Shown here piece by piece: positions 316-53,543 of a stretch of DNA of 64,000 nt. The stretch lies in the IMG/VR virus record IMGVR_UViG_3300029605_000001; one strand, 5' to 3'. Positions within the stretch are counted from its first letter, which is position 1, and each line of letters opens with the position of its first letter. Made by a program: the position numbers and the translations under genes. Below the pieces are notes generated by a model. It did no database searches, was not told the origin of the DNA, and saw only the letters and a program-made list of their open reading frames with translations. Source of the DNA: a virus (lineage: Duplodnaviria; Heunggongvirae; Uroviricota; Caudoviricetes).

Positions 316-423
316 ATATATAATTTTTAAAATTAAACAATACAAATATGAAGTAATTTTATTTAAAATCAAAATTAATTTAAGGCAAATTTTAAAGTAA
401 ACTATAAAGTATGATATAAAGGA
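1..423 (-). mobile_element. group I-type intron (partial) interrupting the DNA polymerase gene inside motif B
   Basis: Polymerase ORF stops immediately after ...RKKAKGYEFAFNY where motif B (RxxAKxxxFxxxYG) needs a G. A separate endonuclease ORF follows. Downstream exon lies beyond the window. Confidence 0.5.
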
Positions 424-1914: not shown

Positions 1915-2155
1915 ATTTGTCTACGTTATCCCATAATATTTTGTTATCTTCACTATATATTTCAACTGTGGGATAATCTGAGTTGTCATATGGCTCTAAG
2001 TCCTCTATGCAGTCTAAATCTGTATCATAAGTGCATTGACTCTCTTCATTTATGATTTTATCTACAGCTTCTTTTAAAGTATTAGCTTCTATTTTGTAAT
2101 ATTGTCTATACCAATTAGTAAATTTTTTGTCTCTGTATAAATTATATACATTCAT
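1889..2155 (-). CDS. hypothetical protein
   Basis: 88-aa minus-strand ORF in a co-directional array; no recognisable motif. Confidence 0.3.
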   Translation of the reverse strand: MNVYNLYRDKKFTNWYRQYYKIEANTLKEAVDKIINEESQCTYDTDLDCIEDLEPYDNSDYPTVEIYSEDNKILWDNVDKYDISSNKE

Positions 2156-2753
2156 AATATAATAACGTTGGGTTATTTTTATGAATATCTATATTATTTA
2201 AGTTACTAGATTTAATCTTATTATTAAACTGATTTGAATCAAATCCATTACATACTAAATGAAACCCATGAACTGTTGGGATTTGATAAATAGTAAACTC
2301 AGGATTATGTCTACATGATTTTATGATATCAATAACCTGATTAATATTGTCTGGTTCATCAACATCTACTACCCATAAAGCTTTATATCCTCTAGCTCTA
2401 GAGCTTCCACATACACTATCCCATACATTATTACCCATGAAGGAATTATTATTTAATACTAAATCAGTATATCTTTTAATACATTCAAGAGATACTTCTT
2501 GTGCATTCCTAACATTCATATTAATGTATGCTCTAGCATTGTTACTTCTACATAACTCCTTTATTCTATTTTCTAGTTTATTAAAATCATCTACACTATA
2601 TATATAGTATGATTTAATTAACCTATATCCATTTCTTACATGAAGGCCTTCATTTCCATCTTTCTTTCTTTGTATAATTTGAATAAAATAAAACTCATTC
2701 TTATTATTGAATAAGAGATGAGGTCTAATCACATTAAAATTATCTACAGTCAT
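2142..2753 (-). CDS. hypothetical protein; possible archaeo-eukaryotic primase-like fold
   Basis: WVVDVDEPD (DxD-like) and TVHGFHLV (H motif) resemble AEP primase-polymerase motifs I and II. The assignment is weak. Confidence 0.3.
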   Translation of the reverse strand: MTVDNFNVIRPHLLFNNKNEFYFIQIIQRKKDGNEGLHVRNGYRLIKSYYIYSVDDFNKLENRIKELCRSNNARAYINMNVRNAQEVSLECIKRYTDLVLNNNSFMGNNVWDSVCGSSRARGYKALWVVDVDEPDNINQVIDIIKSCRHNPEFTIYQIPTVHGFHLVCNGFDSNQFNNKIKSSNLNNIDIHKNNPTLLYYECI

Positions 2754-3221
2754 AAATTATACATTCTTTTATATTTATTATATATTTCTCTGATAGCGGG
2801 TTCTCCAATAGGATTTTCTCTAAGAGAATCTCTATGAATGCACTCCTCTAGGGGAGTGAAAAAGTCTTTAAATTCTAATTCATATTTAAAATCATCTTCA
2901 GGGCGTAACTTACCTTCATTTCGAAGTTCTTCAACAACCTGATTATGAGCATCTACTAACAAAGTATAATATTTAACTTCTTTTGGATTTAGATTCATAT
3001 TATCTATAACAATATCCTCTCTTCATAGAAGTTGCAGTAAATTGTTTTTTAATAGCCTCTACCAAAGTTTCTCTACTAGGTACCCAATACTTACCCAACA
3101 TATTTCGAATATCATCATTGTTAAATCTTACTCTACTATTTGGATTTTCTAATACCCAATTCTTAGCCCATGTAGATTTCCCACTTGCAGGAATACCTCT
3201 ACATATAATAATTTTAGCCAT
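2750..3221 (-). pseudogene. P-loop polynucleotide/nucleoside kinase-like gene, apparently frameshifted (ORFs 3000..3221 and 2750..2998)
   Basis: Walker A GIPASGKSTW in the first ORF resembles T4 Pnk GCPGSGKSTWA. LLVDAHNQ (cf. VIISDTNL) lies in the abutting second ORF, which is in a different frame (3221 mod 3 differs from 2998 mod 3). Confidence 0.4.
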
Positions 3222-3301
3222 ATTTTTTAATTAAATGATTTTTATTAGATATTTAAATTTTTAGTTATCCTAAAAGCTTATCAGGAATATTTTATTAATA
3301 G

Positions 3302-4156
3302 TTATAATAAGTCTTTTAGTCCATCTGAATAATTTTTTCTTATGTAGTTTATGGCGCTATGCTGAATCTGTCTTACTCTTTCTCCTCCTATACCAAATCT
3401 ATTAGCAATTTCATCATTAGACATAGGGTCCATTCCTATTCCAAAAGACATTCTTAGGATATCTCTATCTCTGCATGATAATTTAGATAAAACTCTTTCT
3501 ATTTCGTTAGAAAGATCACTCTCATTAGTATTTATATCTGTAGGAGCAGAATTTTCATTTGGAATAATATCTATTAGACAATTACTATCTTCATCTTTTA
3601 TAGGATTATCAAGGGATACAGATCTGGATACAGAAGATAGAGCAGTATTAATCTTACTTTGGTCTAAATTAGTTTCATTTTCAAGTTCTTGTATAGACGG
3701 TTTTCTTCCATTTAGTTGCTCAAATTTCTCAGATACTTTATTAATTTTATTTATGTATACAACTTGACTCATAGGAATCCTAACAGTCCTACATTGATCT
3801 GATAAAGCTTTCATAATTGCTTGCCTTATCCACCATACTGCATATGAAATAAACTTGAATCCTTTATCAGGATCAAATAATTTAGCTGCTTGTATCATTC
3901 CTAAATTACCTTCCTGTATTAAGTCCACTAGTGGTAGACCTTTTCCTTGATATTGCTTTGCTACAGATATAACAAATCTTAAATTTGATTTGATTAATTT
4001 ATCCATAGCATCTGAATTACCTTCTTTTACTTTTCTAGTAAGCTCTACTTCTTCTTCCTGACTAAGAATAGGCTGTTTAGATACATCTTTGAAATATAAT
4101 CCCAAAGATGCATCTTGCCTGTCAGTAATAGATTGAGTTATTTTTAGACTTTTCAT
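3302..4156 (-). CDS. sigma-70 family RNA polymerase sigma factor (regions 1.2, 2, 3, 4)
   Basis: Region 2 DLIQEGNLGMIQAAKLFDPDKGFKFISYAVWWIRQAI. Region 4 MSNDEIANRFGIGGERVRQIQHSAINYIRK. Confidence 0.85.
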   Translation of the reverse strand: MKSLKITQSITDRQDASLGLYFKDVSKQPILSQEEEVELTRKVKEGNSDAMDKLIKSNLRFVISVAKQYQGKGLPLVDLIQEGNLGMIQAAKLFDPDKGFKFISYAVWWIRQAIMKALSDQCRTVRIPMSQVVYINKINKVSEKFEQLNGRKPSIQELENETNLDQSKINTALSSVSRSVSLDNPIKDEDSNCLIDIIPNENSAPTDINTNESDLSNEIERVLSKLSCRDRDILRMSFGIGMDPMSNDEIANRFGIGGERVRQIQHSAINYIRKNYSDGLKDLL

Positions 4157-5286
4157 TAGGACTCATCCTCAATGTTACTTTCTCCTTTATCAAGGAGTTC
4201 TTGTTCTTTATTAAGAAATCTAAAACATTTTAATTTAAAAGCTCTAGTAACTCCGTCATCAATTTTAATTACTAATCCCTCATGAGGAACCTTATTTATA
4301 CAATGAGGTGAATCCATTTCCATATAGAAACTAGGATCATTAGAAAGATTATCAATAAAGTTTTCATTCCAATGATTTGAAATATCAAGCTCAGGATATA
4401 GATCCTTAGCCAGACCACAGTAGCATTCTTCAACTGGAGTAAGTCCTACACTGGAACACCACTGTTGTACTTGATGTGGAGTATACTCATATACTTTACC
4501 ATCTACATTAGTATATGTGACTCTGTAAATTCTTACTTTGAAATGTTTTTCTGGAGTATACTTTTCTCCGTCCTTTGGAGGAGTACACCCATAATCATAC
4601 TTTTTTTGAATATATTTCCCATTAGGAAGATATCCAATAATCTCATAATAAGCAGTCTGCCCCTTTGCTAAGCAAGGTCTAACAATATTATCAGCTTCTG
4701 CCCATACATCAACACCATAGAAACCACTACCAACATTACGATTATAATACTTATTCTTTATAACTGTTCTAGAAGCGTAAATATAATCATACCTATTGAA
4801 TTCTTCTCCAGTAAGCCATTTAGCTATCTTTTGTTTCCAGTTCAAAGGCTGTCTACATAACACATATGCCGCATCGAATTCAATACCCTCTTTGACATTT
4901 TCTAATTCCTTATTAGTTACTGATATAATATAATTTTCTAAAATAGTCATCGGAAGAATAAATCCTTCAGATAATTCTCCTCTAAGTTTTATAGCCTTAA
5001 CCCTTCCATTATCATCAAACATTCCAGACTGTTCTGGATCCTTATTTAATTCTTTATGTCTATATAAATTAGCATAACTTAAGAAATCTCCATTTATGCA
5101 AGACAATGCTGGGAAATATACATATAGTCCAGGCTCAGAATCAATACCAGTAATAATATTAAATCCATCAATAGTACAGCACTTAAGTCTATTAACGTCA
5201 GGATCAGAATGTTTTCTGAATGTAGAAATATTTACAATTTTAGATAAATAATTCTCACTTGCTTTCTTACTTTTAATTAATTCCAT
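4156..5286 (-). CDS. ATP-dependent RNA/DNA ligase-family nucleotidyltransferase (RNA ligase-like)
   Basis: C-terminal HEGLVIKIDDG (motif IV EGhVhK) and KLKCFRF (motif V KxK). Motif I is not clearly identified. Confidence 0.45.
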   Translation of the reverse strand: MELIKSKKASENYLSKIVNISTFRKHSDPDVNRLKCCTIDGFNIITGIDSEPGLYVYFPALSCINGDFLSYANLYRHKELNKDPEQSGMFDDNGRVKAIKLRGELSEGFILPMTILENYIISVTNKELENVKEGIEFDAAYVLCRQPLNWKQKIAKWLTGEEFNRYDYIYASRTVIKNKYYNRNVGSGFYGVDVWAEADNIVRPCLAKGQTAYYEIIGYLPNGKYIQKKYDYGCTPPKDGEKYTPEKHFKVRIYRVTYTNVDGKVYEYTPHQVQQWCSSVGLTPVEECYCGLAKDLYPELDISNHWNENFIDNLSNDPSFYMEMDSPHCINKVPHEGLVIKIDDGVTRAFKLKCFRFLNKEQELLDKGESNIEDES

Positions 5287-5317
5287 TTTTACTATTAATC
5301 TAATTAAATTTTATAAC

Positions 5318-5623
5318 TTATTCATATACAGCACTATCCTGAAATTCTCTCATAAAATTTGCATAGCATTGAGCCTCAGCCTCATAGTATTTATTGTCAA
5401 AGAATTGTTGAAAGGCATGGAAAACTTCATGCCAAAATGTATTAAAAATCTGTTCATCTTTTAATTCAATTCCATCTATAGTTCTTGCAATTTTAATTGT
5501 ATTAGTAACTGAATTATAATTTCCGTATACTTCTTCTCCATCCCTTCCAGTTACTTGGTCTACCACTTGAACTATAATCTTAGTATTAGCTATTTTAAAT
5601 TCTTTAGGTATTTTCATTTTCAA
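5318..5623 (-). CDS. hypothetical protein with HExxH (WHEVFHAF) motif
   Basis: 101-aa minus-strand ORF; possible small zinc metallopeptidase-like motif. Confidence 0.3.
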   Translation of the reverse strand: MKMKIPKEFKIANTKIIVQVVDQVTGRDGEEVYGNYNSVTNTIKIARTIDGIELKDEQIFNTFWHEVFHAFQQFFDNKYYEAEAQCYANFMREFQDSAVYE

Positions 5624-5744
5624 AGATTAAATTGAGTTGTAAAAAAGTTTATATTACCTTTTCCAATAATATGGGCATCTCCGCACTCGTCTATATGGTA
5701 TTGAATATCTCCGTCAAAATTTAATTCCTCGTACTAATTCATAA

Positions 5745-6101
5745 TTAGATTATATCATAGTATTCTTCTTGATTCAAATAATTATTACTAGACAAAATGT
5801 CAATAATCTGTGAGATAAATTCTTGGCCATCCTCTCTACTAAAAAACTTACTTAATACTAAATATTCTGTTTCAATTAGTGGAGTAGCTAATTTAATAAT
5901 ATTATATAGTTCTGAAGGTTTATATGATATATATTCATTTGTTCCAAAGTAGAGATCTATTTCAGAATCTTCTAGATCTTTAGAGTATTTTAATAAAGCA
6001 TCTAGAAGTAATTTTCTTTGTTTATGAGTAAGAATATTTATCCCAAAGATATCAAATTCATCTGCCCAATTGGCATGCCAAGTGATTAAATAATTGTTCA
6101 T
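5745..6101 (-). CDS. hypothetical protein
   Basis: 118-aa minus-strand ORF in the gene array. Confidence 0.3.
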   Translation of the reverse strand: MNNYLITWHANWADEFDIFGINILTHKQRKLLLDALLKYSKDLEDSEIDLYFGTNEYISYKPSELYNIIKLATPLIETEYLVLSKFFSREDGQEFISQIIDILSSNNYLNQEEYYDII

Positions 6102-6103
6102 TA

Positions 6104-6487
6104 TTACTTAATTTCAGATTCATCAACTTTAGTAATTATTGTTCTACCAATTACATGATTATGTACAAGTTGATAAATGTGATTATCAAACTCATATTTA
6201 CACCTAAAGTGCTTATCATTATTAGAACCTTCGAATGGCTTCCATCCTAATTCATCTAAAACCTCTAACGTTAGATTAAGACTAACCTGTCCAAAATTAA
6301 AGTAATCTAGATTATTGGATAATATTTCTTTTAAATCCTCTTTTATGCTTTTTAAAGCTAAGGTTAAGTTTTCATGTGGATTTTTGCTTTCTATATATTG
6401 TGCAATGGTACTTCCTGCAAATACTATATTATCTCTATCCACATCCTGTTTTATCAGCTTCTCTGTTTCATCATTTAATACTATCAT
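6104..6487 (-). CDS. hypothetical protein
   Basis: 127-aa minus-strand ORF in the gene array. Confidence 0.3.
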   Translation of the reverse strand: MIVLNDETEKLIKQDVDRDNIVFAGSTIAQYIESKNPHENLTLALKSIKEDLKEILSNNLDYFNFGQVSLNLTLEVLDELGWKPFEGSNNDKHFRCKYEFDNHIYQLVHNHVIGRTIITKVDESEIK

Positions 6488-6722
6488 AGTCCTCCATTGG
6501 ATTATTTATTTCGACATTCTTATAATCAAATCCATACTGTCCTACCCAACTTCTCGCAACTATAGCTGAAATAGAAGAATAGAAATGCATGGCTTCATTA
6601 GGATTATCTGTAATCCAATAGCACATTAGTCCAGTTACAGGATAAAATAAATCATCTATAGTCTCTAGACAGAAATCCTTAAGGTATTCACCTTTTTTAT
6701 TTTGAAGCACTTTAACTATCAT
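6471..6722 (-). CDS. hypothetical protein
   Basis: 83-aa minus-strand ORF overlapping its neighbours by a few nt, typical of phage operons. Confidence 0.25.
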   Translation of the reverse strand: MIVKVLQNKKGEYLKDFCLETIDDLFYPVTGLMCYWITDNPNEAMHFYSSISAIVARSWVGQYGFDYKNVEINNPMEDYDSIK

Positions 6723-7504
6723 TCTAAATCAAATCGAAATATTCTAGCTTTAGGTTGAGTGGGCTTACCTTCATCTGAGTAATTAAAGAATGTACATTCT
6801 ACCTTATGTCCAAGATACTTTTCATTAAAATTCTCAACATATTCTGCTTTAGTTTCCCTATCACCTACAGGCATAGCTTTGAATGTTCTACCATCCTCCA
6901 ATTCACAAATAAAAGTCATATCCTCAGAACCTCTTAATCCTAATTCATATCCTACAACTTTAAAGTCTTCAGATTTGTATTGCTTAATTTTAATTAATTG
7001 ATTTCCTCTAGAACCAGGTTTATAAGGTTTATCAGGATCAGTAATACAAGCTCCTTCAAATCCTTCTGATACATACTGATTATGAGCTTGTATTATATTG
7101 TCCCATCCTTCTACAGTATCATGTACTAGTATTTTTATAGGCTCATTTTTCTCATCCTCACTAATTCCAGAATATAAAAAGAATGCAGAGTTCTCAAGTA
7201 AGAATACATATCTATCTATTGCTGTCATTTCTGGTTTATCAATAAAATAGCAATCATATATCCAGTATTCAAGCCAATCACAGTCATATGCATTTTTCTC
7301 CATTCTAGCTGCTCCACTTATTTGCTGAAGTGACTTCCCTCTTTTAAAGAGTTCTCCATCTAAAATTACATTTGGATTTCTAGAGAAAAAGTATAATAAT
7401 TCTGGATTAGTCCTTAAATGAGTAGTAGCTGCATCATAATTTTCTCCCCCTCTAGATGCAGTATGAATTTCTCCATCCTTATAATAGAATAATGCTTTAA
7501 CCAT
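6719..7504 (-). CDS. ATP-dependent DNA ligase, exon 2 (motifs III, IV, V and OB domain; lacks motif I)
   Basis: NVILDGELF (motif III), EGFEGACITDP (motif IV), QLIKIKQYK (motif V). No KxDGxR upstream of the first Met. Confidence 0.75.
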   Translation of the reverse strand: MVKALFYYKDGEIHTASRGGENYDAATTHLRTNPELLYFFSRNPNVILDGELFKRGKSLQQISGAARMEKNAYDCDWLEYWIYDCYFIDKPEMTAIDRYVFLLENSAFFLYSGISEDEKNEPIKILVHDTVEGWDNIIQAHNQYVSEGFEGACITDPDKPYKPGSRGNQLIKIKQYKSEDFKVVGYELGLRGSEDMTFICELEDGRTFKAMPVGDRETKAEYVENFNEKYLGHKVECTFFNYSDEGKPTQPKARIFRFDLE

Positions 7505-8428
7505 TTATTACCCTAAAGGCTCTTTATCCTTTAGTTCCATAGATTCATTATTCTCTATGGTTTGGACTATATCTTCACCATCTAAATAATTGAATATATT
7601 TTTACAAAAAACTTCAATTTGTTTTCTTGTTGCAGAAGATTTCATCATATTCGCTAAGGTAGAAATAAAAGCAACGTTTCCTTTTACATATCCTTTTTTA
7701 GGATTAATTCTGTCTAAAGCAGGAGTATCTTCAGCTCTGCCTCCTTCATCTTTAGGGTTATACCAATTAAGTTCTATACCTAAAATAGGACAAACTGGAG
7801 TATATATTTCCTTTAAATCGTCTAAAGTCAAATTAAATGGAACTGCTTTTAATTTAGCTCTACATTTTACTCTTGCTAAGGTATCTTTTAACTTCTCATC
7901 TAAAGACTTTGATGCTTCTTTATTTTGATACCAATTTGCCTTTCGTTCTATTACTTCTGGACGATTATTATATTCCATTGCTTTGATTCTAATCTCTTCT
8001 CTATGAGCCTCTTTATATTTAGCAGAGGCTAACTTCTTTTTTCTCTAATACTCTGGATCAGATTTAATCCTTTCGTATCTCTCGCGCATTTTACGATTTT
8101 TACACTCTTTACATTCACGAAAATGACCATCCTTACTTCTTCTGTCTTTTGTAAATTCCGATAATGGTTTTTCCTATTTACAACAGGTACAAATTTTTGT
8201 TAATTCTTCCATACTAAATAGCTTTTAAGTTATGACTAAATATAACTAAAATTCTTAAACCATCAAAACATATTTTTAGAAGGTGTCCAGTGTTCTTGGA
8301 GTATTTTATTTTCCTAAAAGTTTTTAGGAATCAACTCTAGTCTCTGCGCATTTATAACTATTACTAGTTAGTTTAGCTCAGGATTCCCATCTCAGGGTTC
8401 CCTGAATTAGCTGGATTTAATGACGGCA
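7505..8428 (-). mobile_element. group I-type intron in the DNA ligase gene carrying an HNH endonuclease ORF
   Basis: Ligase motif I (RKLDG) ends ORF 8429..8860. Motifs III-V resume at 7504. The GC-rich segment 8290-8428 contrasts with the AT-rich surroundings. Confidence 0.5.
7508..8212 (-). CDS. HNH-family homing endonuclease with N-terminal zinc ribbon, containing two in-frame TAG codons
   Basis: From ATG 8210-8212: MEELTKICTCCK-TAG-EKPLSEFTKDRRSKDGHFRECKECKNRKMRERYERIKSDPEY-TAG-RKKKLASAKYKEAHREEIRIKA, in frame with ORF 7508..7978. C-terminus LDRINPKKGYVKGNVAFISTLAN matches ORF 46234..46980. TAG complements at plus 8174-8176 and 8045-8047. Confidence 0.6.
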
Positions 8429-8860
8429 TTAAAGCTTACCGTCAAGCTTTCGGCTAATCATCCACTTTTTATTGTAGATTTTAGGATTAGTAACTTTTTC
8501 ACTCTGCTTAGCAAGCTGAGGTTTTATTACACCATATTGATTAGTCTTAACATCCCCGAAGATTTCTTCTAAACTATCAAGACTATAATTATTAGGATGC
8601 TTATCTACTTCTATATAACCTTTATCTTTAAATTTTTTAACTTCACTATTATACTGTAAAGCTAATTGTTCTTTCCAAGTCCTTTTCTGCTTAGTTTTAT
8701 CTATTATTATAGTAGGAGATAAGGTTGTCTTACCTCCTACTTGTCCATAACTTCTTTGTATAATATAACCATGTTCTGGTTCATGCCACTGTTCATCGGA
8801 CTCTACAATTGCAAATCTGAACTTACCAGTAGATGCCTTTCCTAAAAGATATGTAATCAT
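8429..8860 (-). CDS. ATP-dependent DNA ligase, exon 1 (N-terminal region ending in motif I KxDG)
   Basis: ORF ends ...KKWMISRKLDGKL then stop. KLDG matches ligase motif I KxDGxR. Confidence 0.6.
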   Translation of the reverse strand: MITYLLGKASTGKFRFAIVESDEQWHEPEHGYIIQRSYGQVGGKTTLSPTIIIDKTKQKRTWKEQLALQYNSEVKKFKDKGYIEVDKHPNNYSLDSLEEIFGDVKTNQYGVIKPQLAKQSEKVTNPKIYNKKWMISRKLDGKL

Positions 8861-9169
8861 TTATTTACGAAAATCCTTAACAATATTCCATAGATCTTCT
8901 ATAGTTTCTGTTGGGATCTCATTTCCTTCTTCATCCCACATAGTTGCTCCTGGAGGTAATGTGGGTTTCTCAACTAACCACCAGTAGATAGTATAAGCTG
9001 CATCCTCGCCAAAAAGAATTACGATAAGATTATTAAACAAACGTTCTCCATATTCTACCCAATCAATTTCAAGAGGATTACAGTTTAGAACTCTTCCAAC
9101 TTCTTTTAGTTGATTATACCATTTATTTTGCTCTAAAATTAATTTAGTGAATTCTTCTTTAGTAATCAT
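8861..9169 (-). CDS. hypothetical protein
   Basis: 102-aa minus-strand ORF. Confidence 0.3.
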   Translation of the reverse strand: MITKEEFTKLILEQNKWYNQLKEVGRVLNCNPLEIDWVEYGERLFNNLIVILFGEDAAYTIYWWLVEKPTLPPGATMWDEEGNEIPTETIEDLWNIVKDFRK

Positions 9170-9171
9170 AA

Positions 9172-9534
9172 CTAATCCCTAATTTCCAGATAAATATTTT
9201 CGTTACTATCTAGATTATTAAATTCAAGTAATAAAACTTTTAAAAGGTATTCTTTTACATTTCCAATCTCTTTAAAGTAACTATCATTATATGGGTTACT
9301 TTCAAAAGAGAACTCATCTACTATTGGTAATAATTTAGGTGCCAGTAGATGATTTGATAATACCTGATTACACCTAGAAATTAAAATTTCAATATCTTCT
9401 TTACTTATTAGGAATGGAGTTTTATCTTCGGTATCAAATCCTAAATCAGAAAAGTATTTAATTAAAAAGTTTACTTTTCTGAAACTACTTAATTCTAAAG
9501 TTTTCCTTTTTACAAAAACTATACCTAGATTCAT
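9172..9534 (-). CDS. hypothetical protein
   Basis: 120-aa minus-strand ORF. Confidence 0.3.
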   Translation of the reverse strand: MNLGIVFVKRKTLELSSFRKVNFLIKYFSDLGFDTEDKTPFLISKEDIEILISRCNQVLSNHLLAPKLLPIVDEFSFESNPYNDSYFKEIGNVKEYLLKVLLLEFNNLDSNENIYLEIRD

Positions 9535-10055
9535 TATTTAGAATTACTATGTCCAAATCCGCCACCTCTATCTACTCCAAAACTAGTAATATCTTCTAAA
9601 CTTCTAACATTATCCCACTCAATGTGTTCAATCTTATTTAATACAGCTTGAGCTATTCTTTCTCCATCCTCAATCCATATAGTTTCAAATCCTAAATTAA
9701 TAACAGGAATTCCCCATTCTCCTCTATATCCTACATCAATAGTTCCAGGAGTATTTACTACAGATAATCCTTTCTTAATTGCCAGACCACTTCTAGGTCT
9801 AATCTGAACTTCATATCCATCTGGAATAGCTGTAAATATACCAGTAGGAATAATTATTCTAGACATTGGCTCCAATCTAAGCATAGCCAATGAATGACCT
9901 TCTCCTGCAAATATAATACCTCCATCTCCATATATCTTTGGAATGTTATTAGGAGATAGTCTACTAAAATCTGCTCTTAAATCAGCCCCAGCATCTGTAG
10001 GATTATAATATTGTGGATTTGGATTATTAGAATTATTATAAATTTTTACTTTCAT
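9534..10055 (-). CDS. dut: dUTP diphosphatase (trimeric dUTPase)
   Basis: Motifs [40 protein letters not shown]. Confidence 0.85.
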
Positions 10056-10224
10056 AGATAGGAATATTAGTAATTTTATTAAATGTATCTCTAGGTATAA
10101 TTAATTTTTCATCTTCAGTCAACTCATCATAACTATTTACATCTCTAATTGAATAATTAAAGTGATCTATTAACATAAATAATATGTCTTTTGTTAAATC
10201 ATCAGCCTGTAAATTAGTTTTCAT
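10036..10224 (-). CDS. hypothetical protein
   Basis: 62-aa minus-strand ORF. Confidence 0.2.
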
Positions 10225-10724
10225 GCTTGTAGAACTTTAGGAATAAAATTCCCATCTTCAATTACAAGGTAATTCTTATATCCAAGAGAATCACATAACC
10301 ATATATTTTGATTTCCTAATGTAGCTGCTTTCATATTAACTATTTTACTAGTTGTTGTATGCCCTACAACCTGATCATACCCTTTAATATTACAACTACA
10401 TAATGTACCAGGCCTAATCCAAGTTGGAGGTTGAGTTTCTGAATCTCCATAATAATCCAACGGACTATCAGGTGTAAATCCAAATTCTTCTCTTAGGCCA
10501 TAGTCATTAATGTTATGAACATCAGACTCCTTTAAGATTTTCTCCAGCCATACCTTAGATACTCCAGCGTGAGAAAATATAGTTTTTAATTCATCATCTA
10601 TATATACCCAATCGGTTAGTTTAGTAAATCTCATTAGAAACTCAGCACTACTCATTCCAAATGCAACCTCCCTATCATAACCACTACACTCTGCCCAATA
10701 ATATCCTAGATGCTGTGTATCCTT
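10221..10724 (-). CDS. Ser/Thr protein phosphatase (calcineurin-like metallophosphatase), exon 2
   Basis: IFSHAG, PPTWIRPG, GYDQVVGHTTT match the C-terminal half of lambda-PPase/PrpE-type phosphatases. The frame stays open upstream of the listed Met to a TAA at about 10725. Confidence 0.6.
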   Translation of the reverse strand, partial: KDTQHLGYYWAECSGYDREVAFGMSSAEFLMRFTKLTDWVYIDDELKTIFSHAGVSKVWLEKILKESDVHNINDYGLREEFGFTPDSPLDYYGDSETQPPTWIRPGTLCSCNIKGYDQVVGHTTTSKIVNMKAATLGNQNIWLCDSLGYKNYLVIEDGNFIPKVLQA

Positions 10725-11769
10725 TTATGTTTATATTAGTTCGTTAAGCTAATATCAATAGGGTAGTTCATACCCATAGCTCATACTTCCTTATTCGTAT
10801 GAGAACTGACTATCTCACACCCTCGACTTTACTCGTTAGGGGCCGCGCATTTCGAACCACTTGATTCTACTCCCATTTCAGGGATAGTCGATGAGCCTTC
10901 CTCTAATACAGAGGCTTGGTTGACGATTGGCATCTCAGCCGTCTCCTCAGTTAACACGGTTTCGACAGATGATTTCTCATCTGAAGCACAAAATATTTCT
11001 TCAAACTTTAATCTTTTTTCATTACACCAAATAGGAGATTTAGAATACATATACTCGTAAAGACTTCTAGCCTAACCTCTTCCAGAATATTCCATAGTAC
11101 ATACTTTGTTACAGGTAGGAGTATTTAGATTTTTGGCTTTAGAGTAATTTAGTTTAGTCTTTCTTTTTACTATTCCCTTGCTTACAAGAAACTCTTGAAG
11201 TGGTTCAATGAAAGAAATGCATCCAGTAAATGTAAATTTTACGTTATGGACTATTCTTTCCCTCATCTCTCCTGGCTTCTTTTCGTTCTTAACCCACATT
11301 TTCTTTCTTTTACCATTCCAAATACATCCGTCTCCATCAAAATATCCTAATATAAAGGATGACATAAGTTCGCCCGGTATAAACTATGGAAAATTAAGTA
11401 ATAAAGATTTGTTTCTTGGTACTCCTAGATTAACTAAATCCTAACATAATTTTTTGCTATTGATACTTAGTCTGTACACGCCAGGGCTATATGTTCTAAT
11501 AGGGTAATTAGAATCTAGTGCTTTGTTAATTTTCTCTAGTATATCAACTCTTTCTTCTATTTGGTCTAATTCTAGGCAATCCTATCTATTATACCCGTCT
11601 GCGTATATAAACCCCAATATATACGCCTATTCGTGAGTTTTTAACTCACTAAAGTAGTTTTCGTTAAAATCATATTTTCTATACATACAATTAAATAATT
11701 TTGTTTATAGGTAAATATAGTATGATTTCCTCAGATTACCAAATTAAAGTTTGTAATTTTATGATTGCC
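10725..11769 (-). mobile_element. group I-type intron in the phosphatase gene carrying a LAGLIDADG ORF
   Basis: N-terminal phosphatase motifs at 11770-11858 and C-terminal half at 10221-10724 are separated by about 1 kb. That segment holds a GC-rich core (about 10750-10960) and a LAGLIDADG ORF. Confidence 0.45.
11072..11365 (-). CDS. LAGLIDADG homing endonuclease (single-motif)
   Basis: MSSFILGYFDGDGCIW. An upstream in-frame TAG-containing extension exists, but its coding status is unclear. Confidence 0.6.
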   Translation of the reverse strand: MSSFILGYFDGDGCIWNGKRKKMWVKNEKKPGEMRERIVHNVKFTFTGCISFIEPLQEFLVSKGIVKRKTKLNYSKAKNLNTPTCNKVCTMEYSGRG

Positions 11770-11858
11770 ACGTAATAGAATTACCTTGTCAGGGTTTTCT
11801 ATAATATCATTCCATATTAAACGACCATGGATATCTCCTAGTACTACTATTTTCATAT
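11770..11858 (-). CDS. Ser/Thr protein phosphatase, exon 1 (GDxHG motif)
   Basis: From ATG 11856-11858: MKIVVLGDIHGRLIWNDIIENPDKVILL... The exact 3' end of the exon is uncertain. Confidence 0.5.
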
Positions 11859-12038
11859 ATCTTTATCTTTTAATCTAGAGTATTTAACACTCTTAATTTT
11901 CCTATTCTTATAAATTAGTGTGGAATTAGCTATATCTTCATATTTATTATCTGTAATATTAACTTTTAGCTTAAGATCTCCAGAATTTATCAATGACTTA
12001 AGTAAGTCTACTATTTCTTTGTCAGTAAATTTATTCAT
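11853..12038 (-). CDS. hypothetical protein
   Basis: 61-aa minus-strand ORF. Confidence 0.2.
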   Translation of the reverse strand: MNKFTDKEIVDLLKSLINSGDLKLKVNITDNKYEDIANSTLIYKNRKIKSVKYSRLKDKDI

Positions 12039-12318
12039 TTATATATGATAATAAATTAGTTATTACACTTTCAGATTCAGTATAGAAAGCTTTTATTGGT
12101 CTATCTTTGTCAAATACTATAGCAAAAGGATCTAGCTTAGCTCCCCAATAAGACTTAAGTTTAAATGCTTGTTTCCTACTCTTATTAGATGATGTATCAA
12201 GCAAATGTACCTTTATATCTTCAAGTTTATCATTGTTAATAAATTCCTTAACTTGCTCAGGATCATTATATGTAATAAATATATCTGTGATCATAATAAT
12301 ATAATATAAAATCCGCAA
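12031..12318 (-). CDS. hypothetical protein
   Basis: 95-aa minus-strand ORF. Confidence 0.3.
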   Translation of the reverse strand: MRILYYIIMITDIFITYNDPEQVKEFINNDKLEDIKVHLLDTSSNKSRKQAFKLKSYWGAKLDPFAIVFDKDRPIKAFYTESESVITNLLSYINE

Positions 12319-12485
12319 ATAATTCCAACTAAGATATCTGGAATCCCTATTAATAAAAATAGAGTATTTGCCTTATATTTATCATAAGGCAAAATACTCT
12401 TTTCTTCAAAATATCTCTGTACTATTATCCATATAATAGATTTAATTAAGCATATAAATAATAATAAATATCCAATTATTACCAT
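12291..12485 (-). CDS. small predicted membrane protein
   Basis: 64 aa, two hydrophobic helices (VIIGYLLLFICLIKSIIWIIV..., LFLLIGIPDILVGIICGFYIILL). Confidence 0.3.
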   Translation of the reverse strand: MVIIGYLLLFICLIKSIIWIIVQRYFEEKSILPYDKYKANTLFLLIGIPDILVGIICGFYIILL

Positions 12486-12488
12486 AAA

Positions 12489-14288
12489 TTAATCACACTT
12501 ACTATAGGAGCAATTATTACACTGTATACATCCTCCTGTATGAATAAGAGTTTTTTCATGACAGTTTGGACACTCTTCTAGATCTATTACTTCTCTAGTT
12601 GTTAACTCGGTATTAGAAGTTTTATCACTATCAATAATACTTAGTACCTTATTATGCATTTCCTTTAATGCTTTACCTACAGCTACAGGACAACAAGAAC
12701 CAGGAGAGGTATCCTTTTTAGTAGCAGTTCTAACTGCGTAAGAAGGACATACACCACAAGATTTTAGTTGATCAAGAATATCATCAATCTTAATACCTCC
12801 TCTAGCAGATAATGAGATTAATCTAGAAAGACCAATCATAAAATTCTGGCATCCTCCTAATGAACCTTTACTCAAGTAACACTCTCTGAGTTCTCCATTA
12901 GATGGTTCGAAATAAGCACAACAATGTAATGTACCACATCCAGTCATTAAAGTACTTTTGAGTCCTATCCAGTTATTTCCAGCTTTTATAATCTCTCCCC
13001 TACCTAAGGATTTTGGCTGATGTTTTTCTTCTATCTTATCTGCTGGTTTTTCTGTAGTAAGAATACCCTCTCTCATACACCCACTTCTATATATTGTAAT
13101 TCCTTTCAACCCATATTTCCAAGCTTTAACATATATATTATATACATCTTCAACAGTGGCAGAGTTAGGAAGATTTATAGTAGAACTAATAGAAGCGTCA
13201 GTATACTCCTGTAAAATACTTTGCACCTTAATCCTATCAACTGGATTAATATCTTTTGACTCAATAAAATAACTAGGTAATTTACTATCCTTACTAGGAT
13301 CAACTCTAGAATAATAATCATCTACTATTTTAAGATTAACTTCATAGAAGGTATCTTCACCGTTAAGGGTTTGAGTTTTTCTAGTATATTTAAGTGCAAA
13401 ATTTGGTTCAACTCCTGTACTTACTTGTAGCATAGTAGCTATACTACCAGTAGGAGCACAGGTTAATAATTGACTATTATATAATCCATACTGCTTTATC
13501 TCTTTTATTAGATTTCCATCACACACAGCTTTAATAAATGAAGAATTAGATACTAGCTCTTTATTACACATAGGATATGGTCCATATATCTTTGCCAAAT
13601 CTATAGATGCCTTTATGGCAGATACTGCAATACATTTATATACATCATTAAGTAATGCTAATGATTTTTCAGAACCATATGTTAATCCTAACTTAATTAG
13701 CATATCAGCCATACCCATTGTCCCAAGACCAATTTGTCTCCAAGTTCTAACAGAATCTCTTTGTTCTCTTAAAGGATGTAATTCAATACCCTCATTAAGT
13801 ACATCATTTAATCCCTTGACTACTATTATAACTGCATTAGATAAATCCTTGTAATCTACTGACGCTAATGGAGTAAACGCATCCTTAACAAATTCACTCA
13901 AATTTATACTGCCTAGTAAGCAACTACCTCCAGCAGGTAAGGGCTCTTCAGCACAAGGATTTACTCCAGCATAAGAGAAAAATTCATTATTATCTAGCAT
14001 ATTATACTGAGAGATTCTATCCCAATATAAAAGCCCGGGTTCAGCCCATTCCCAATTACGTTTAGCAAGTAATTTAAGTAGATATTTAGCTTTAAAAGTC
14101 CTAGAAATAGTTCCAGTCTTAGGGCTAGTATAAGTAGCTACCCAATCTTCATCATTGATGGCAGCTTTCATAAATTCATCGGTAACTCTAATACTTATAT
14201 TAGCCTTTTCACATACTCCTTGTTGAGTTTTTAAATTAATAAAATCCTCAATATCAGGATGAGAGCAGTTAATACTAATCATCAATGC
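12489..14288 (-). CDS. nrdJ: ribonucleotide reductase class II (adenosylcobalamin-dependent), exon 2
   Basis: Begins ALMISINCSHPDIEDFI, continuing the GRRG end of exon 1. C-terminal Cys-rich tail with CPNCHEKTLIHTGGCIQCNNC. Confidence 0.85.
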   Translation of the reverse strand, partial: ALMISINCSHPDIEDFINLKTQQGVCEKANISIRVTDEFMKAAINDEDWVATYTSPKTGTISRTFKAKYLLKLLAKRNWEWAEPGLLYWDRISQYNMLDNNEFFSYAGVNPCAEEPLPAGGSCLLGSINLSEFVKDAFTPLASVDYKDLSNAVIIVVKGLNDVLNEGIELHPLREQRDSVRTWRQIGLGTMGMADMLIKLGLTYGSEKSLALLNDVYKCIAVSAIKASIDLAKIYGPYPMCNKELVSNSSFIKAVCDGNLIKEIKQYGLYNSQLLTCAPTGSIATMLQVSTGVEPNFALKYTRKTQTLNGEDTFYEVNLKIVDDYYSRVDPSKDSKLPSYFIESKDINPVDRIKVQSILQEYTDASISSTINLPNSATVEDVYNIYVKAWKYGLKGITIYRSGCMREGILTTEKPADKIEEKHQPKSLGRGEIIKAGNNWIGLKSTLMTGCGTLHCCAYFEPSNGELRECYLSKGSLGGCQNFMIGLSRLISLSARGGIKIDDILDQLKSCGVCPSYAVRTATKKDTSPGSCCPVAVGKALKEMHNKVLSIIDSDKTSNTELTTREVIDLEECPNCHEKTLIHTGGCIQCNNCSYSKCD

Positions 14289-16458: not shown

Positions 16459-18075
16459 CTACACATTCTCAAAGGTACCTCTTAATAAATTATCTCCAAT
16501 GAATAAATCGTAAGACATTCCATATGAATTTCTACTGAAGTTGTAATTAGAATAGTCTGAAGCTCCAAATAGACTCAAAACATTTCTGTAATCTAACCTT
16601 TTACAGGAATTAAGAGAGTTAGAATGTAAATCTCCTTTAATAAAATGAACTCCATTTCCATGAATATTCATTTCATGCAGCCATTCATAAAGCATTACTT
16701 TTGATTTATCATCTAAGTTAAGAGGCAAACCCTTCTTCATATATTGATCGTCTTTACCATGACAACATATAAATACATGATCATTCTGATTAAATACTCC
16801 AAAGAATTCTTCCCACAGTACAGTATTAATGTCAGGATACTTAGCATTTACTATACTTAGTAGAGTTTTATTACACATATATTCCATAATTCCTCCATGA
16901 TTCCCAGTCGGAACAGAATATATATTAACACTTGAACTTACTTTATTGATAACTATGGAGTCAATGAACCACAACATTATACTAATAAAACTGTTAGCTT
17001 GTTCCCTTGCATCCATATTTTCTGGCATTACATGATCAAGTCTAGCAGTTTTCCCAGTAACTCCGCAACAGTCTACATTATCTCCCATTAAGACTAGATT
17101 CATAGTATCAAATGTTCCTACTTGCTGCAGTTTGTTAAGTATAACTGTCAATCTTCTTTTTATTTCATTGATTCCATATTCTGAGTTCTCTTTATATAGA
17201 ACACCTGAAGTTACCTTAGCACCTATATGCATATCAGATATATAGAGATTTATTGACTTTCCAGTTCTGTCATTTTTAGAAAGTCTAATAGGATTTATAT
17301 TATCAGGAATATTTATTGAGAAATTTGATAAATTTCGTAATTCATTCTTTAACTCTATATTTTCTTGAGCATATTTCTTTAAAAGTTTCTCGTTATTTCT
17401 TATTTGATCCTCTTCAGCTTTTCTCAGGAAACTATTTTCCTTTTCCCTTAACTGAATTTCTCTCAGTTCATCTTCTGTACACTCCTCAATCATATGAGGT
17501 GCAAATGGAGCTGAAGCTTTAGTAATATTAAATGCACGAAGTATCCTTTTAAAATCAATTAAAGATAGATCACCAAAGTGTCTAGATATAACTCTTTGAG
17601 TTAATGAATCTCCATAATAAGAATATAACCTATGAATTGTATTCATTTCTTCTCTAGTAAGATTGCCTACTAAAGATGGTTTATTTCTTCTATATATTTG
17701 ATAATGATAAGACGAAATCTTTCCTGTTTCATCCCTTATAAAAGCAACCTTGGATTTATCATCTGTATCAAGTATTTCCTTAGAATTTAACTTATGACAG
17801 GTTACTTCATTATATAATTTTATAAGTTCCTCTATTTCTCTAGATTCTTCATTATTTTGTTTCTTTAAAGTAGATATAGTACTTACTATATTATTGTAAC
17901 TTAAGTTATTTTCAGCACAATATTTACTTAATTTTTTTCCACTAGCTTTTACATCTAGTAGTATTTTAGCGTATTTTACAATAGTTGATTGTTTCATATT
18001 TTTAATTGATTTATTCAAACTTAAATTAAGGTAGTTACACCGAAAAATAAAAAAAACGGCCACCATATTATACAA
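16459..18075 (-). CDS. calcineurin-like metallophosphoesterase domain protein (possible Mre11/SbcD-type nuclease) with N-terminal DNA-binding-like region
   Basis: YISDMHIG, LMGDNVD, TGNHG, ICCHGKDD phosphoesterase motifs. Confidence 0.5.
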   Translation of the reverse strand: MYNMVAVFFIFRCNYLNLSLNKSIKNMKQSTIVKYAKILLDVKASGKKLSKYCAENNLSYNNIVSTISTLKKQNNEESREIEELIKLYNEVTCHKLNSKEILDTDDKSKVAFIRDETGKISSYHYQIYRRNKPSLVGNLTREEMNTIHRLYSYYGDSLTQRVISRHFGDLSLIDFKRILRAFNITKASAPFAPHMIEECTEDELREIQLREKENSFLRKAEEDQIRNNEKLLKKYAQENIELKNELRNLSNFSINIPDNINPIRLSKNDRTGKSINLYISDMHIGAKVTSGVLYKENSEYGINEIKRRLTVILNKLQQVGTFDTMNLVLMGDNVDCCGVTGKTARLDHVMPENMDAREQANSFISIMLWFIDSIVINKVSSSVNIYSVPTGNHGGIMEYMCNKTLLSIVNAKYPDINTVLWEEFFGVFNQNDHVFICCHGKDDQYMKKGLPLNLDDKSKVMLYEWLHEMNIHGNGVHFIKGDLHSNSLNSCKRLDYRNVLSLFGASDYSNYNFSRNSYGMSYDLFIGDNLLRGTFENV

Positions 18076-19250: not shown

Positions 19251-20140
19251 TTATAGAAATCTATACCCTTCATTATAATAATAAGCAGCTAGTCTAATTA
19301 AGTAAGTAAATTCATTCCATCCATCAATAAAGTCTTTTTTGGTTACTTTATAGACCTTAGTATAATAGTTTGGAATAGTGGATACAACTAAACAATTAGA
19401 TCTTACTAGGCATTTACTCATATTGTAATACTTACTAGCAACTAAACTCAGTAACCAGCTATATATAGCTAGTTCTCTACTATAATGAAACTTAGAGAAA
19501 TTATTTTCAAATTCCGGAAGAATTTTCCCTATAGTTTTAACATCATTTACAGTTATTGTATTGCATTCAGTATCTATGCTATAGTTATCCAGTTTAGCTT
19601 TAATTTTAAAAATAAATGAATTCTCTCCAGGAATTTTTATGTTTAGATCAAGTAATATAGCCTGTTCATTCCCATATATTGGATTAATAAACATTCCTTT
19701 TGGATATAACAAGTCACTTATAGCTTTGTTAGTATTTAAAGCATTTACACATCGTAACACTCTATCCCTACTTTTAGAGTCCAAGTAAATTTGACTTAAA
19801 CCAGTATTAGAAAGAGAGTCTTCATAGGATTTTCTACTACTCCAGTAAGGAGTACATAAACTAATAATGTTATCTATGCGCTCCTTATTAAGCTTTCCTT
19901 TATAGTAGTCTATCTCATTAGATGCTTTAATTATTAATGATTCTGTAATATTTTCTGTTACATAATCATTGTATAAATAATCAGCTATAAATCCTAGTTT
20001 AGCTGTAGGTCTATCAACAGATGTTACTAATTCAAATAATTCAGGTTGTAGCACAAGTTCATGAACTGCACTCTTACCCCTATAGTTTTCACTACTACTA
20101 AGCTTACGTGCACAAGTTTGCTGTTTATCTATATACGATC
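19251..20140 (-). CDS. hypothetical protein (frame open upstream of listed start to about 20140; possibly the downstream exon of a split gene)
   Basis: ORF 19251..20054 starts at a GTG. The same frame is open for about 28 more codons (...SYIDKQQTCARKLSSSENYRGKSAVHELV...). Confidence 0.3.
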
Positions 20141-20363
20141 AACCTCGCCTAGTCATAAACTCGCCTGCACTTCTTAACTTAATATTTGTGGTCTGGACTA
20201 TGTCTTCATCCTATAATAGGATGCACCTGCATCTAGTCTCTGAGGCTGAATCTATTATTATATTCTTCACAAATAAATAATAGCCTATGCCTCCTCAAGT
20301 TAGCATATCAATTTCTTGACTTAGCTTCCGAGGATATTCAGGCGTAATAATAAAAGTAATTAC

Positions 20364-21263
20364 TTACTTAGACGGCAGTATTTCATTAATAATTGCCTAA
20401 ATTCTTTCAAGTTTATTTTCATTGTATTTAATTATAAAGAGCTTTATATTATTTTCTTTACAGTAGTCAGAAAGGGCATTATCTCTTTTTACCTGTTCTT
20501 CATAGTGAATCTATCCTCCAAAATATTCAACAGGCATATAGTGCTACTCTCCATTTACTTCAATAATATATTCTTTCCCATTTAAATTAATGTAAAAATC
20601 AACTAAAACTTTTTTATATAACTGAAAATACTTTTCCTTCTCGAATGGGATTTTACTTTCTTCTAACGCTAAACGAACTAGTTCTTCTCCAGCAGACTCT
20701 CTGCACTTCTAGCAGTTATGTCCAGATAAATGTTTGCCAGCACATTGCCAAAATTCGCCATGCTTGGGACAAATTACACATACTGGAGTGTTCCAAGAAA
20801 TATATTCAACTTTCGAGTAATCATATCTAGATCCATGAACTTCTTTAGCTCTAGTTATAAACTCTTCTATTGTTAATTTTCTTGGTTCATTTTGTTTAAT
20901 GCTTGCACAAGATTTACATCCAAATCTTAGAATATTATCAGCAGTAGTATGTCTAATATTACCACACTTTTTACACTTGACTGTAACATCCTAATAACTT
21001 TTATACTCAATAAAATCATATTTACTAGTATCAAGTTTAGATAAGAAAATCTTTTTAGCCTAAGACGTTCTAGAGCTTTTAACTCCACATTTAGGACATC
21101 CACATTTTGAATTAATTACTGATCGTGGAACTACTTTCCATTCATAACCACAATCTGTACATTTTACAGTTATCTTTTCGTTAGCTCCTTTATAATCTTC
21201 TACTAAAACTAAATTTTTAAATTTTTCAGAAAGTTTATCCTAAATTTCTTTTGTTGTTTTCAT
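20364..21263 (-). CDS. Vsr/DUF559-like (PD-(D/E)xK) endonuclease-family gene with zinc ribbons, containing eight in-frame TAG codons
   Basis: From ATG 21261-21263 a single frame of about 300 codons ends at TAA and is interrupted only by 8 TAG codons: MKTTKEI-TAG-DKLSEKF...CTDCGYEWKVV...CGCPKCG...IIEVNGE-TAG-HYMPVEYFGG-TAG-IHYEEQVKRDNALSDYCKENNIKLFIIKYNE... No TAA or TGA and no frameshift. Confidence 0.65.
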
Positions 21264-21279
21264 AAATATTTCATTTAAT

Positions 21280-21576
21280 TTATACACGCAAATGTAATGA
21301 AAAATCTGTTAAAAACAAATAAACATGAAATAATTTTACAATTAAGATTCTACCAAAAATCAATGCATCGCTATACTTATTATGCTTACCTAACCCCTCA
21401 AAGAAAGCTTCTGGATTATTTTCTTGAGCAGGATTTAAAAGTGATAATCTAGAATTACTAATGTATTGAGTAAATTTATCCCCAAAATATTCTGAATCAT
21501 CTATTTTTAAAATTTTAAGTGACTCCATAATTGGGGATACTTCTATCTTATTTAAGTTTTCATCGCTTAAAATCAT
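21280..21576 (-). CDS. hypothetical protein (possibly the 5' exon of a gene split by the 20141-21279 insertion)
   Basis: 98-aa ORF whose C-terminus runs into the AT-rich upstream region of the endonuclease gene. Confidence 0.25.
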   Translation of the reverse strand: MILSDENLNKIEVSPIMESLKILKIDDSEYFGDKFTQYISNSRLSLLNPAQENNPEAFFEGLGKHNKYSDALIFGRILIVKLFHVYLFLTDFSLHLRV

Positions 21577-22102: not shown

Positions 22103-22301
22103 TTATATCTGAAATTTCTCCAAGTAAAATATCCTGACTGTCTAGGTCATTCTTAAATGTATTCCAATCGTCAGAGTCTGAATAATCAGAAAAATATTCC
22201 ATTATCTTTCCTTGACAATGTCTATAACTTCTAGCTACAAACTTTTTATTGTATACTTTAGATTTACCTATTTCACAGACAGGAATGATATACTCATTCA
22301 T
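22092..22301 (-). CDS. hypothetical protein
   Basis: 69-aa ORF; its ATG overlaps the upstream TGA (ATGA). Confidence 0.3.
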   Translation of the reverse strand: MNEYIIPVCEIGKSKVYNKKFVARSYRHCQGKIMEYFSDYSDSDDWNTFKNDLDSQDILLGEISDINEL

Positions 22302-22851
22302 TGTGATACTTATTTAATAGTTTATAAAAGAAATCTACATCTATAATTGCTACAGTACCTTTACTAATCTCTCCAGCCTTAGAAGATTTTTTCCATATCA
22401 GTACGAATTCTCTAGGATCTGTACAAGAATCTCTAATATCAAAATAATTAGGAAATTTAGCATAATGTTTAGCTTGTATAGCTACATCTAATTCCCCAGA
22501 GGGGTCTGCAATATCAACTTTATTATTATCAAGATTTTTAGATTCTCCAGCTGATCTGCATACATTTGAGTAACCAATACTTTTTAATTTTTCTACTATT
22601 TCATATTCAAGATCTCTTCCTTTAGATTTAGATTTCTTAGCCCTAAAATGTCTGGCTGTGTGCTCATTTAGCCACTGAAACTCAGTATTATCTTTACCCT
22701 TAGTTCCAGGCTTATTGCATCTAATTTTGATAGCTGCAATAGAAATTCCTGTGTAAGCACTAGCTTCTTCTATAGATGAGAACTCCTTGACTGTTCCATC
22801 TTTAAATATAGCCTTACAAGAAGTGTCTAACTCATTCTAACTCTTTTTCAT
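22294..22851 (-). CDS. hypothetical protein (HTH-like N-terminus) whose only start lies upstream of an in-frame TAG
   Basis: ATG 22849-22851: MKKS-TAG-NELDTSCKAIFKDGTVKEFSSIEEASAYTGISIAAIKIRC... 178 open codons follow the TAG with no ATG, GTG or TTG in frame. The ORF track misses it. Confidence 0.5.
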
Positions 22852-37736: not shown

Positions 37737-37806
37737 TTACTTTTAAGGATTCGAACCTCTCCTCTCAATTAGGAATTGAGTGCGCTACTATTACGCTATA
37801 TGTTCT
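37737..37806 (-). tRNA. tRNA-like gene, probable Arg (anticodon CCU); acceptor stem not resolved
   Basis: D-stem GCGT/GCGC. Anticodon stem CTCAA/TTGAG with loop TTCCTAA. T-loop GGTTCGAATCC. Confidence 0.35.
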
Positions 37807-43306: not shown

Positions 43307-43381
43307 TTTTGTACCTTTGGGAGTGGTCTTTTCTCTTAAGAGACAATTAATTCCGTGAGCTTTAACAAAGTCATAAATAAT

Positions 43382-43957: not shown

Positions 43958-44058
43958 ATTATTAATATTTATACTATTCCCTTTGTTGGGAGTAGATACA
44001 ATAATATAAAATATTTTTAAATAAACCAAAGAATTTAGATAATATTTATAGAGTTTTA

Positions 44059-44360: not shown

Positions 44361-44577
44361 AGATTTTGATATAGTTCGGCGTACATTTTCTTCCTTATAA
44401 TAAGGAAGAGGACACTCTTGGAGAGATTATATTTATTCACTCTCTACGCTCTACAATACCCAGCAGCCTTTCGCAATCTTCTGGGTTATCACGGTATTTA
44501 AACAATAAATAACTTAACATCTTACTTTGTTTCCTCTCTAAAAAGAAATGTTTATTAAAATATAACTTGTTATACAA

Positions 44578-53531: not shown

Positions 53532-53543
53532 TACAAAAATTTT

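Follow-up and report, generated by a model that had tools for sequence, protein, structure and literature searches.

The window analysed here, i.e., the whole stretch of 64,000 nucleotides of viral DNA, carries on its minus strand an ORF for a putative homing endonuclease. Based on sequence comparisons, this ORF is carried in a group I intron, for which self-splicing is predicted and which splits the gene of a RecE-like exonuclease. The features of the locus, in window coordinates, are as follows.

21352 to 21576, minus strand: exon 1 of the RecE/exonuclease VIII-like host gene
20073 to 21351, minus strand: group I intron of 1279 nt (88 nt on the 5′ side, the 900-nt ORF and a 291-nt 3′ core)
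20364 to 21263, minus strand: homing-endonuclease ORF (ATG at 21261-21263, 299 sense codons, TAA at 20364-20366)
21240-42, 21060-62, 20991-93, 20709-11, 20544-46, 20511-13 and 20397-99, minus strand: in-frame TAG codons of the ORF
20697 to 21263, minus strand: N-terminal zinc-ribbon region of ~190 residues with repeated CxxC modules (DUF723/DUF4379), boundary approximate
20367 to 20696, minus strand: C-terminal Vsr-like (EDxHD-type) nuclease domain of ~110 residues, boundary approximate
20173 to 20378, minus strand: catalytic core of the group I intron (RF00028, 32.2 bits)
19251 to 20072, minus strand: exon 2 of the RecE/exonuclease VIII-like host gene, with no ATG at its 5′ end

The frame of the endonuclease ORF contains seven TAG codons, at codons 8, 68, 91, 185, 240, 251 and 289, and neither an internal TAA or TGA nor a frame break was found across its 299 codons. 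Because TAA and TGA together make up 6.2% of the codon positions in the three minus-strand reading frames, the chance of finding 299 codons without either of them is ~4e-9. A previous reading of this locus, made from the sequence only, had placed the coordinates, strand, ATG and TAA of the frame correctly but had counted eight TAG codons, one more than are present. Its statement that no stop besides TAG and no frameshift occurs holds codon by codon, and the peptide blocks that it quoted match the translation exactly. An exact-match scan of IMG/VR with a 44-mer from the ORF returned no match.

The boundaries of the intron were located by comparison of the host gene with uninterrupted homologs. 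The two exons abut exactly (ALIFG/SAVHELV, the slash marking the junction) on the homologs in MT836281.1 and MT835492.1, and the joined exons gave a single-piece tblastn match over residues 8-358 in two phage records, as well as a match to phrog_412, 'exonuclease VIII', at 1.6e-14. The 5′ exon ends in T (…TTTGGT/AGAATC…), while the intron ends in G (…GGGGTAAG/AGTGCA…, i.e., ...GTAAG/). The same insertion site is used in the relative L002, whose protein has 65% identity. As regards the RNA itself, the Intron_gpI model RF00028 matched with 32.2 bits and an E value of 1.2e-6 in a 361-nt search only, the gathering score of the model being 50; the intron was not detected by Rfam searches of the whole window at gathering thresholds or of 2.6 kb at E <= 1, nor did Rfam searches of the Kolpuevirus and cr112_1 loci detect an intron there. 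At the nucleotide level, the ~200-nt intron core is 81-84% identical to two segments. One belongs to Kolpuevirus 'frurule', where it follows an endonuclease ORF and precedes a downstream CDS of the DnaB helicase, which is annotated there as two CDS; the other is its counterpart in cr112_1, located upstream of the CDS for the helicase. A megablast comparison of 20 kb of the window with GenBank phages returned only this intron-core match of ~160-200 nt.

Translated with TAG as Gln, the ORF was matched in Pfam by DUF723 (3.6e-14, in two stretches) and by DUF4379, both in the N-terminal region, and in PHROG by families annotated as 'intron encoded nuclease' or 'homing endonuclease'. The domain search proposed in the sequence-only reading was thus productive, and the CxxC zinc ribbons that it described correspond to these DUF723/DUF4379 matches, with cysteines that are invariant in 58 homologs. 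The zinc ribbons presumably constitute the DNA-binding part of the protein. Regarding the C-terminal domain, the matches listed by Pfam at E values up to 1 include neither the Vsr nor the DUF559 model, and a profile search of PDB sequences returned only retroviral zinc-knuckle noise; it is therefore from the predicted fold that this domain is assigned as a nuclease. In the predicted structure of a homolog with 89% identity (mean pLDDT of 92), the top three fold matches in the PDB are Vsr, I-Bth0305I and a DUF559-type protein, and on this model the C-terminal domain is assigned the Vsr/I-Bth0305I fold. The Vsr/DUF559-like block of the previous reading is accordingly recovered by fold and not by the Pfam models of these families.

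Across 58 sequences, residues E193, D222, E235, H241 and D261 do not vary. Position 237, that of the motif Asp, is Asn in the clade of the window protein (motif EVNGEQH), and catalytic competence with Asn in place of this Asp is assumed here. I-Bth0305I, a known counterpart by fold, is an EDxHD homing endonuclease from a group I intron of a Bacillus phage (PDB 3r3p). Compared with I-Bth0305I and with Vsr/DUF559 proteins, the window protein differs in its N-terminal DUF723/treble-clef zinc ribbons and in the E-V-N-G-E-Q-H motif of its clade, and its activity and target site are predicted only.

Full-length relatives of the TAG-as-Gln protein, with up to 88-89% identity, are present in the protein database. 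These entries had themselves been called with TAG as a sense codon, and their DNA was therefore inspected. The relatives L001, L002/L003 and L007 have 4-6 in-frame TAG codons apiece, and interruption by TAG only is repeated in homologs at 65-89% identity. Considering the aligned codons, TAG exchanges with CAA or CAG at columns 8, 68, 214, 251 and 289. At column 8, TAG is found in the window and in L001, CAA in L002 and CAG in L007; at column 251, TAG is found in the window and in L002, CAA in L001 and Lys in L007; at column 289, the TAG of the window and L001 is matched by CAA in L002 and L010; and at column 214, the window has CAG versus TAG in L001. Farther away, 14 distant IMG/VR homologs are without any TAG, and in 12 of them column 240 is a CAA or CAG Gln codon. 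This column, encoded by TAG in the window, is the Q of the NGE-Q-H motif of the nuclease domain and is Gln in 58 of the 58 members of the wider alignment, in agreement with the earlier proposal of a family Gln at the position of the TAG that comes first in the nuclease-like block. Columns 68, 91, 185 and 251 are variable among distant homologs. Almost all relatives have Pro (CCN) at column 185, whose TAG therefore represents a substitution and not a conserved Gln.

These comparisons indicate that TAG in the endonuclease ORF is glutamine. Decoding as another residue, i.e., pyrrolysine, Tyr, Trp or Leu, would be compatible with the four variable columns, with the isotype of the CUA tRNA described below not being fixed by sequence similarity and with the label 'Pyl' that ARAGORN gives to this tRNA as a default. 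Nevertheless, the sense replacements in close homologs are mostly CAA or CAG (CAG and TAG being one step apart), with exceptions at column 185 (Pro) and, in L007, at column 251 (Lys); homologs that use the standard code have Gln at the invariant column 240; Gln at TAG has been confirmed by metaproteomics in crAss-like phages (Peters et al. 2022, PMC9523058); and the stretches that were read showed no pyrrolysine genes. We consider a residue other than Gln highly improbable.

With TAG treated as Gln, dN/dS is 0.08-0.09 at a dS of ~0.6 against L001 and L007. The endonuclease ORF is under purifying selection, and this ratio excludes a decaying pseudogene. The view that the TAG codons are true nonsense and that no full-length protein is made could draw on the frequent decay of homing-endonuclease genes, on the frame break of a GIY-YIG ORF in the same window and on a TAG at a Trp column in L007, which is possibly a plain nonsense mutation. 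Besides the dN/dS ratio, this view is opposed by the lack of TAA, TGA and indels over 299 codons (P ~4e-9), by the recurrence of the TAG-only pattern in the homologs and by a genome with a suppressor tRNA and TAG-rich essential late genes, and it is scarcely credible. Nor are the homologs fragmented pseudogenes, an outcome that the sequence-only reading had considered: they are full length, are under purifying selection and swap TAG with CAA and CAG. Its central claim, that TAG is decoded as an amino acid, is supported by these exchanges, by the dN/dS ratio and by the tRNA(CUA).

The genome to which the window belongs is also represented by other contigs, and ~25 kb of it was read outside the window. 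The ENA contig ERZ918344 k127_105108 (161,785 bp) is 100% identical to the window in the fetched overlaps (window positions 1-12814 and 60201-64000), barring one 54-nt indel, and a 140-kb JGI contig is 99.99% identical over positions 51214-64000. A tRNA gene with anticodon CUA and a canonical 7-nt anticodon loop is located ~4.3 kb past the high end of the window (equivalent position ~68.3 kb). It was found at 3173-3245 of contig L006 and, as the same gene, at 12699-12771 of contig L022, both of which are 99.99-100% identical to the window. On one side of the gene is a TAG-saturated block, with terminase and endolysin, and on the other is the replication block, which occupies the window and is TAG-free; the gene lies exactly at their border. 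The window itself contains about twenty tRNA genes, none of them with a CTA anticodon. In pairwise comparisons of the tRNA(CUA) with the tRNAs of the window, Gln ranked fourth (71% identity), and a 39-mer of this tRNA had no exact match in a scan of IMG/VR.

Other suppressor candidates were rejected on the basis of their anticodon loops, which read Gly(UCC) in the extra tRNA reported by Rfam at 59818-59889 and Arg(CCU)-like in the partial tRNA at 37745-37798. Two tRNA-like genes of the minus strand have unusual loops. The gene at 61670-61743 has an abnormal 6-nt anticodon loop, TTCATA, which is CAT-like, and scores 52 bits with the Rfam tRNA model. The gene at 62897-62975 has an 8-nt loop, TGTAGATA, is assigned a 4-base anticodon, 'taga', by ARAGORN and is unreported by the Rfam tRNA model. 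Both were found by ARAGORN in the JGI contig too.

With respect to the differences among assemblies, a 54-nt in-frame segment at 10423-10476, within the minus-strand gene 10221-10655, is flanked by the 7-nt direct repeat AATCCAA. The window contains it, whereas the ENA and Logan contigs, identical otherwise, lack it. Because the JGI contig ends at about this place, according to coordinate arithmetic, the data suggest a strain polymorphism that breaks assemblies.

The use of TAG differs between the two blocks of the genome. In the late genes, TAG accounts for ~75-90% of the Gln codons: TAG outnumbers CAA/CAG by 12 to 1 and by 16 to 4 in the two exons of the terminase (28 to 5 in total) and by 13 to 4 in the NlpC/P60-type endolysin. 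All of these reading frames stop at TAA or TGA. In the early genes, the share is 0%, the 76 ordinary ORFs of the window having no TAG among their 435 Gln codons. Additionally, five of these 76 genes have TAG as their apparent terminator, with a second stop (TAA or TGA) 1-17 codons farther on.

16459 to 18066, minus strand: ordinary early gene ending in TAG, followed 17 codons later by a backup TAA; its L002 homolog has TAA at the position of the TAG
60838-61215, 57036-57224, 42827-43042 and 9172-9534, minus strand: four more early genes ending in TAG

One of the five ends in TAG-TAG. In the first gene, TAG is a true terminator, the stop at this position being TAA in the L002 homolog. TAG as the terminator of intact genes, which the sequence-only reading had named as evidence against a reassigned TAG, is thus absent from the late genes examined but apparent in 5/76 early genes. 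On account of these five genes, the genome is dual-coded and not uniformly code 15. It also follows from them that suppression is incomplete from the start of infection or that those proteins receive short extensions; where the suppressor is active, the five TAG-ended early proteins would gain short tails.

Two further genes were noted in the course of this survey. A PD-(D/E)XK nuclease gene of the same genome (L022 5727-6629) has no TAG and 13 CAA/CAG codons and forms a standard-coded island in the TAG-saturated block. The minus-strand gene 3302-4156, in the replication block, encodes a sigma-70 family protein with Pfam matches to regions 1.2, 2, 3 and 4.

Within the window, in-frame TAG codons are concentrated in endonuclease-type ORFs, eight of which, belonging to five types, carry them. 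Besides the intron-borne ORF described above, they are the following.

59894 to 60595, minus strand: HNH endonuclease ORF, 3 TAGs
58659 to 59024, minus strand: HNH endonuclease-like fragment, 1 TAG (phrog_1271, 'HNH endonuclease', at 2.3e-7)
55978 to 56582, minus strand: GIY-YIG endonuclease ORF, 4-5 TAGs plus one frame change
44437 to 45198, minus strand: LAGLIDADG endonuclease ORF, 2 TAGs
43085 to 43957, minus strand: LAGLIDADG endonuclease ORF, 3 TAGs
10829 to 11686, minus strand: LAGLIDADG endonuclease ORF, 5 TAGs (a 285-aa protein according to the ENA gene caller)
7508 to 8212, minus strand: endonuclease VII-like (HNH-type) ORF, 2 TAGs (phrog_1035 at 3.8e-25)

Together, the eight ORFs have 28 TAG versus 27 CAA/CAG codons, so that TAG makes up ~51% of their Gln codons, against 0 versus 435 in the 76 other ORFs (Fisher P ~1e-30). 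Counted by gene, at least one TAG is found in 8/8 endonuclease-type ORFs versus 1/77 other ORFs. A strict restriction of in-frame TAG to endonucleases is ruled out by the RusA-like gene 22294-22851 and by the TAG-full non-endonuclease genes outside the window. The RusA-like gene (minus strand) encodes a Holliday-junction resolvase and is the only non-endonuclease ORF of the window with a TAG, which is codon 5 and follows the sole ATG. The L002 ORF 8355-8951, at the matching position, has one TAG too.

Several of these and related ORFs have features of their own. In the GIY-YIG ORF 55978-56582, the frame changes near 56400-56410, in an A/T run (…ENFKV / SIEVVDNDK…). This region belongs to the part of the window shared at 99.99% identity with the independent JGI contig, and the ORF may be a decayed copy or contain a real frameshift. 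In the region 43085-45210 (minus strand), a short ORF without an ATG (44059-44394) has a LAGLIDADG ORF on each side and resembles an exon from a host gene that two introns interrupt. The gene of the family A DNA polymerase (424-1914, minus strand) halts at 424 and continues outside the window, ~1.1 kb farther downstream, on the other side of a LAGLIDADG ORF (L005 12439-14216 region) whose sole TAG is 13 codons before its end. The large terminase gene (L022 1-3248) is also split by a LAGLIDADG ORF. This ORF has 1 TAG versus 6 CAA/CAG, compared with 28 versus 5 in the TAG-rich exons around it, a contrast opposite to that of the early block. In the relative L002, two endonuclease genes are without TAG.

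Based on these analyses, we propose, with a probability of about 0.88, that the ORF at 20364-21263 encodes a functional intron-borne homing endonuclease whose 7 TAG codons would be read as Gln via the phage tRNA(CUA), in a crAss-like phage of ~162 kb. In the proposed mechanism, the phage-encoded amber-suppressor tRNA, with anticodon CUA, would insert Gln at each of the seven TAG codons. Because the first TAG is codon 8, production of the endonuclease would probably have to await an active suppressor tRNA. It would then depend on the same condition as the expression of the late genes, even though the host gene lies in the block compatible with the standard code.

Whether this dependence has a regulatory meaning is a separate question. 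TAG may be read as Gln and the TAG load may nevertheless have no regulatory significance, late gating being a side effect. Such a load could arise by drift from CAG to TAG where the protein is not needed before the tRNA is active, or the element could have arrived already laden with TAG from a code-15 phage. The gating may thus be a neutral by-product and not a regulatory device, because the two endonuclease genes of L002 are without TAG and the LAGLIDADG ORF of the terminase gene has 1 TAG versus 6 CAA/CAG. A neutral origin would likewise fit the intermediate use of TAG in endonuclease ORFs (~51%, between the 0% of early genes and the ~75-90% of late genes), the presence of endonuclease ORFs with 0 or 1 TAG in the window genome and in L002, and the location of TAG mostly at variable columns, with positions that differ among relatives. 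Opposed to it are the presence of TAG in 8/8 endonuclease ORFs of the window versus 1/77 others and the statistical demonstration that a family of intron endonucleases in an early gene is preferentially recoded (Borges et al., 10.1101/2021.08.26.457843). We regard the neutral explanation as a serious possibility, although one that falls somewhat short of even odds.

Regarding the placement of the phage, the sole evidence is PolA, which is 58-59% identical to the proteins of crAss001 and cr128_1 and places the window near crAss001-type phages; the ribonucleotide reductase gene was of no use for this purpose. The crAss-like phages, especially those of the Zeta group, have genomes of 145-192 kb with dense group I introns and inteins and with suppressor tRNAs (Yutin et al. 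2021, PMC7886860). Reassignment of TAG to Gln or of TGA to Trp occurs mostly in their late genes, and the published examples include recoded intron ORFs (PMC7886860). The dual-coded arrangement has already been described for crAss-like phages (PMC7886860, PMC12386605), and a study of the Zeta group reported that a TAG at the end of an ORF is closely trailed by another stop (PMC12386605).

The genome studied here resembles the code-15 crAss-like phages in its size (~162 kb versus 145-192 kb), in its block of tRNA genes, roughly 20 or more, which includes a CUA suppressor, in the concentration of TAG in late genes next to a replication block compatible with the standard code, in its many group I introns and homing-endonuclease ORFs, and in the second stop close behind an ORF-ending TAG. 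No essential difference from these phages was found. In the crAss-like recoding literature examined, no description of the endonuclease family of the window or of its intron site was found.

In the TGA-recoded Agate phages, the endonuclease of a group I intron in an early gene is preferentially recoded, and its late production has been proposed (Borges et al., 10.1101/2021.08.26.457843). The window endonuclease shares with it an early, standard-coded host gene, an ORF enriched in the reassigned stop and a proposed late-only production. The two cases differ in that TGA is Trp in the Agate phages, which belong to another clade, whereas in the window TAG is Gln and eight endonuclease ORFs of five types are found in one 64-kb stretch. 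The Agate study reportedly was published in Nat Microbiol in 2022. TAG-to-Gln recoding, dual-coded genomes, dense introns and recoded endonucleases in the introns of early genes have thus all been published already for crAss-like or related gut phages, and the present case leaves the knowledge of genetic-code reassignment in gut phages unchanged.

In practical terms, the window is to be annotated with TAG as Gln for the ORFs of mobile elements and for late genes and with the standard code for early genes. Under the wrong code, eight endonuclease genes are lost from the gene calls, or false extensions are added to the TAG-terminated early genes. For the biology of these phages, the locus is a clear added example of the published idea that recoded stops delay the synthesis of homing endonucleases to late infection. 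It differs from the published case in its code (TAG = Gln) and phage lineage, and several unrelated endonuclease types in one genome share the pattern. A broader proposal, prompted by the TAG codons in all eight endonuclease-type ORFs of the early block and in our view less likely than not, is that stop-codon recoding acts as a general leash on selfish endonuclease genes, both as a timing device and as a barrier to the spread of introns. If true, no homing endonuclease would be translated before the suppressor tRNA becomes active, and none would function after a jump into a standard-code phage. Such a leash could also explain the apparently unused CUA suppressor of some Zeta-group phages (PMC12386605).
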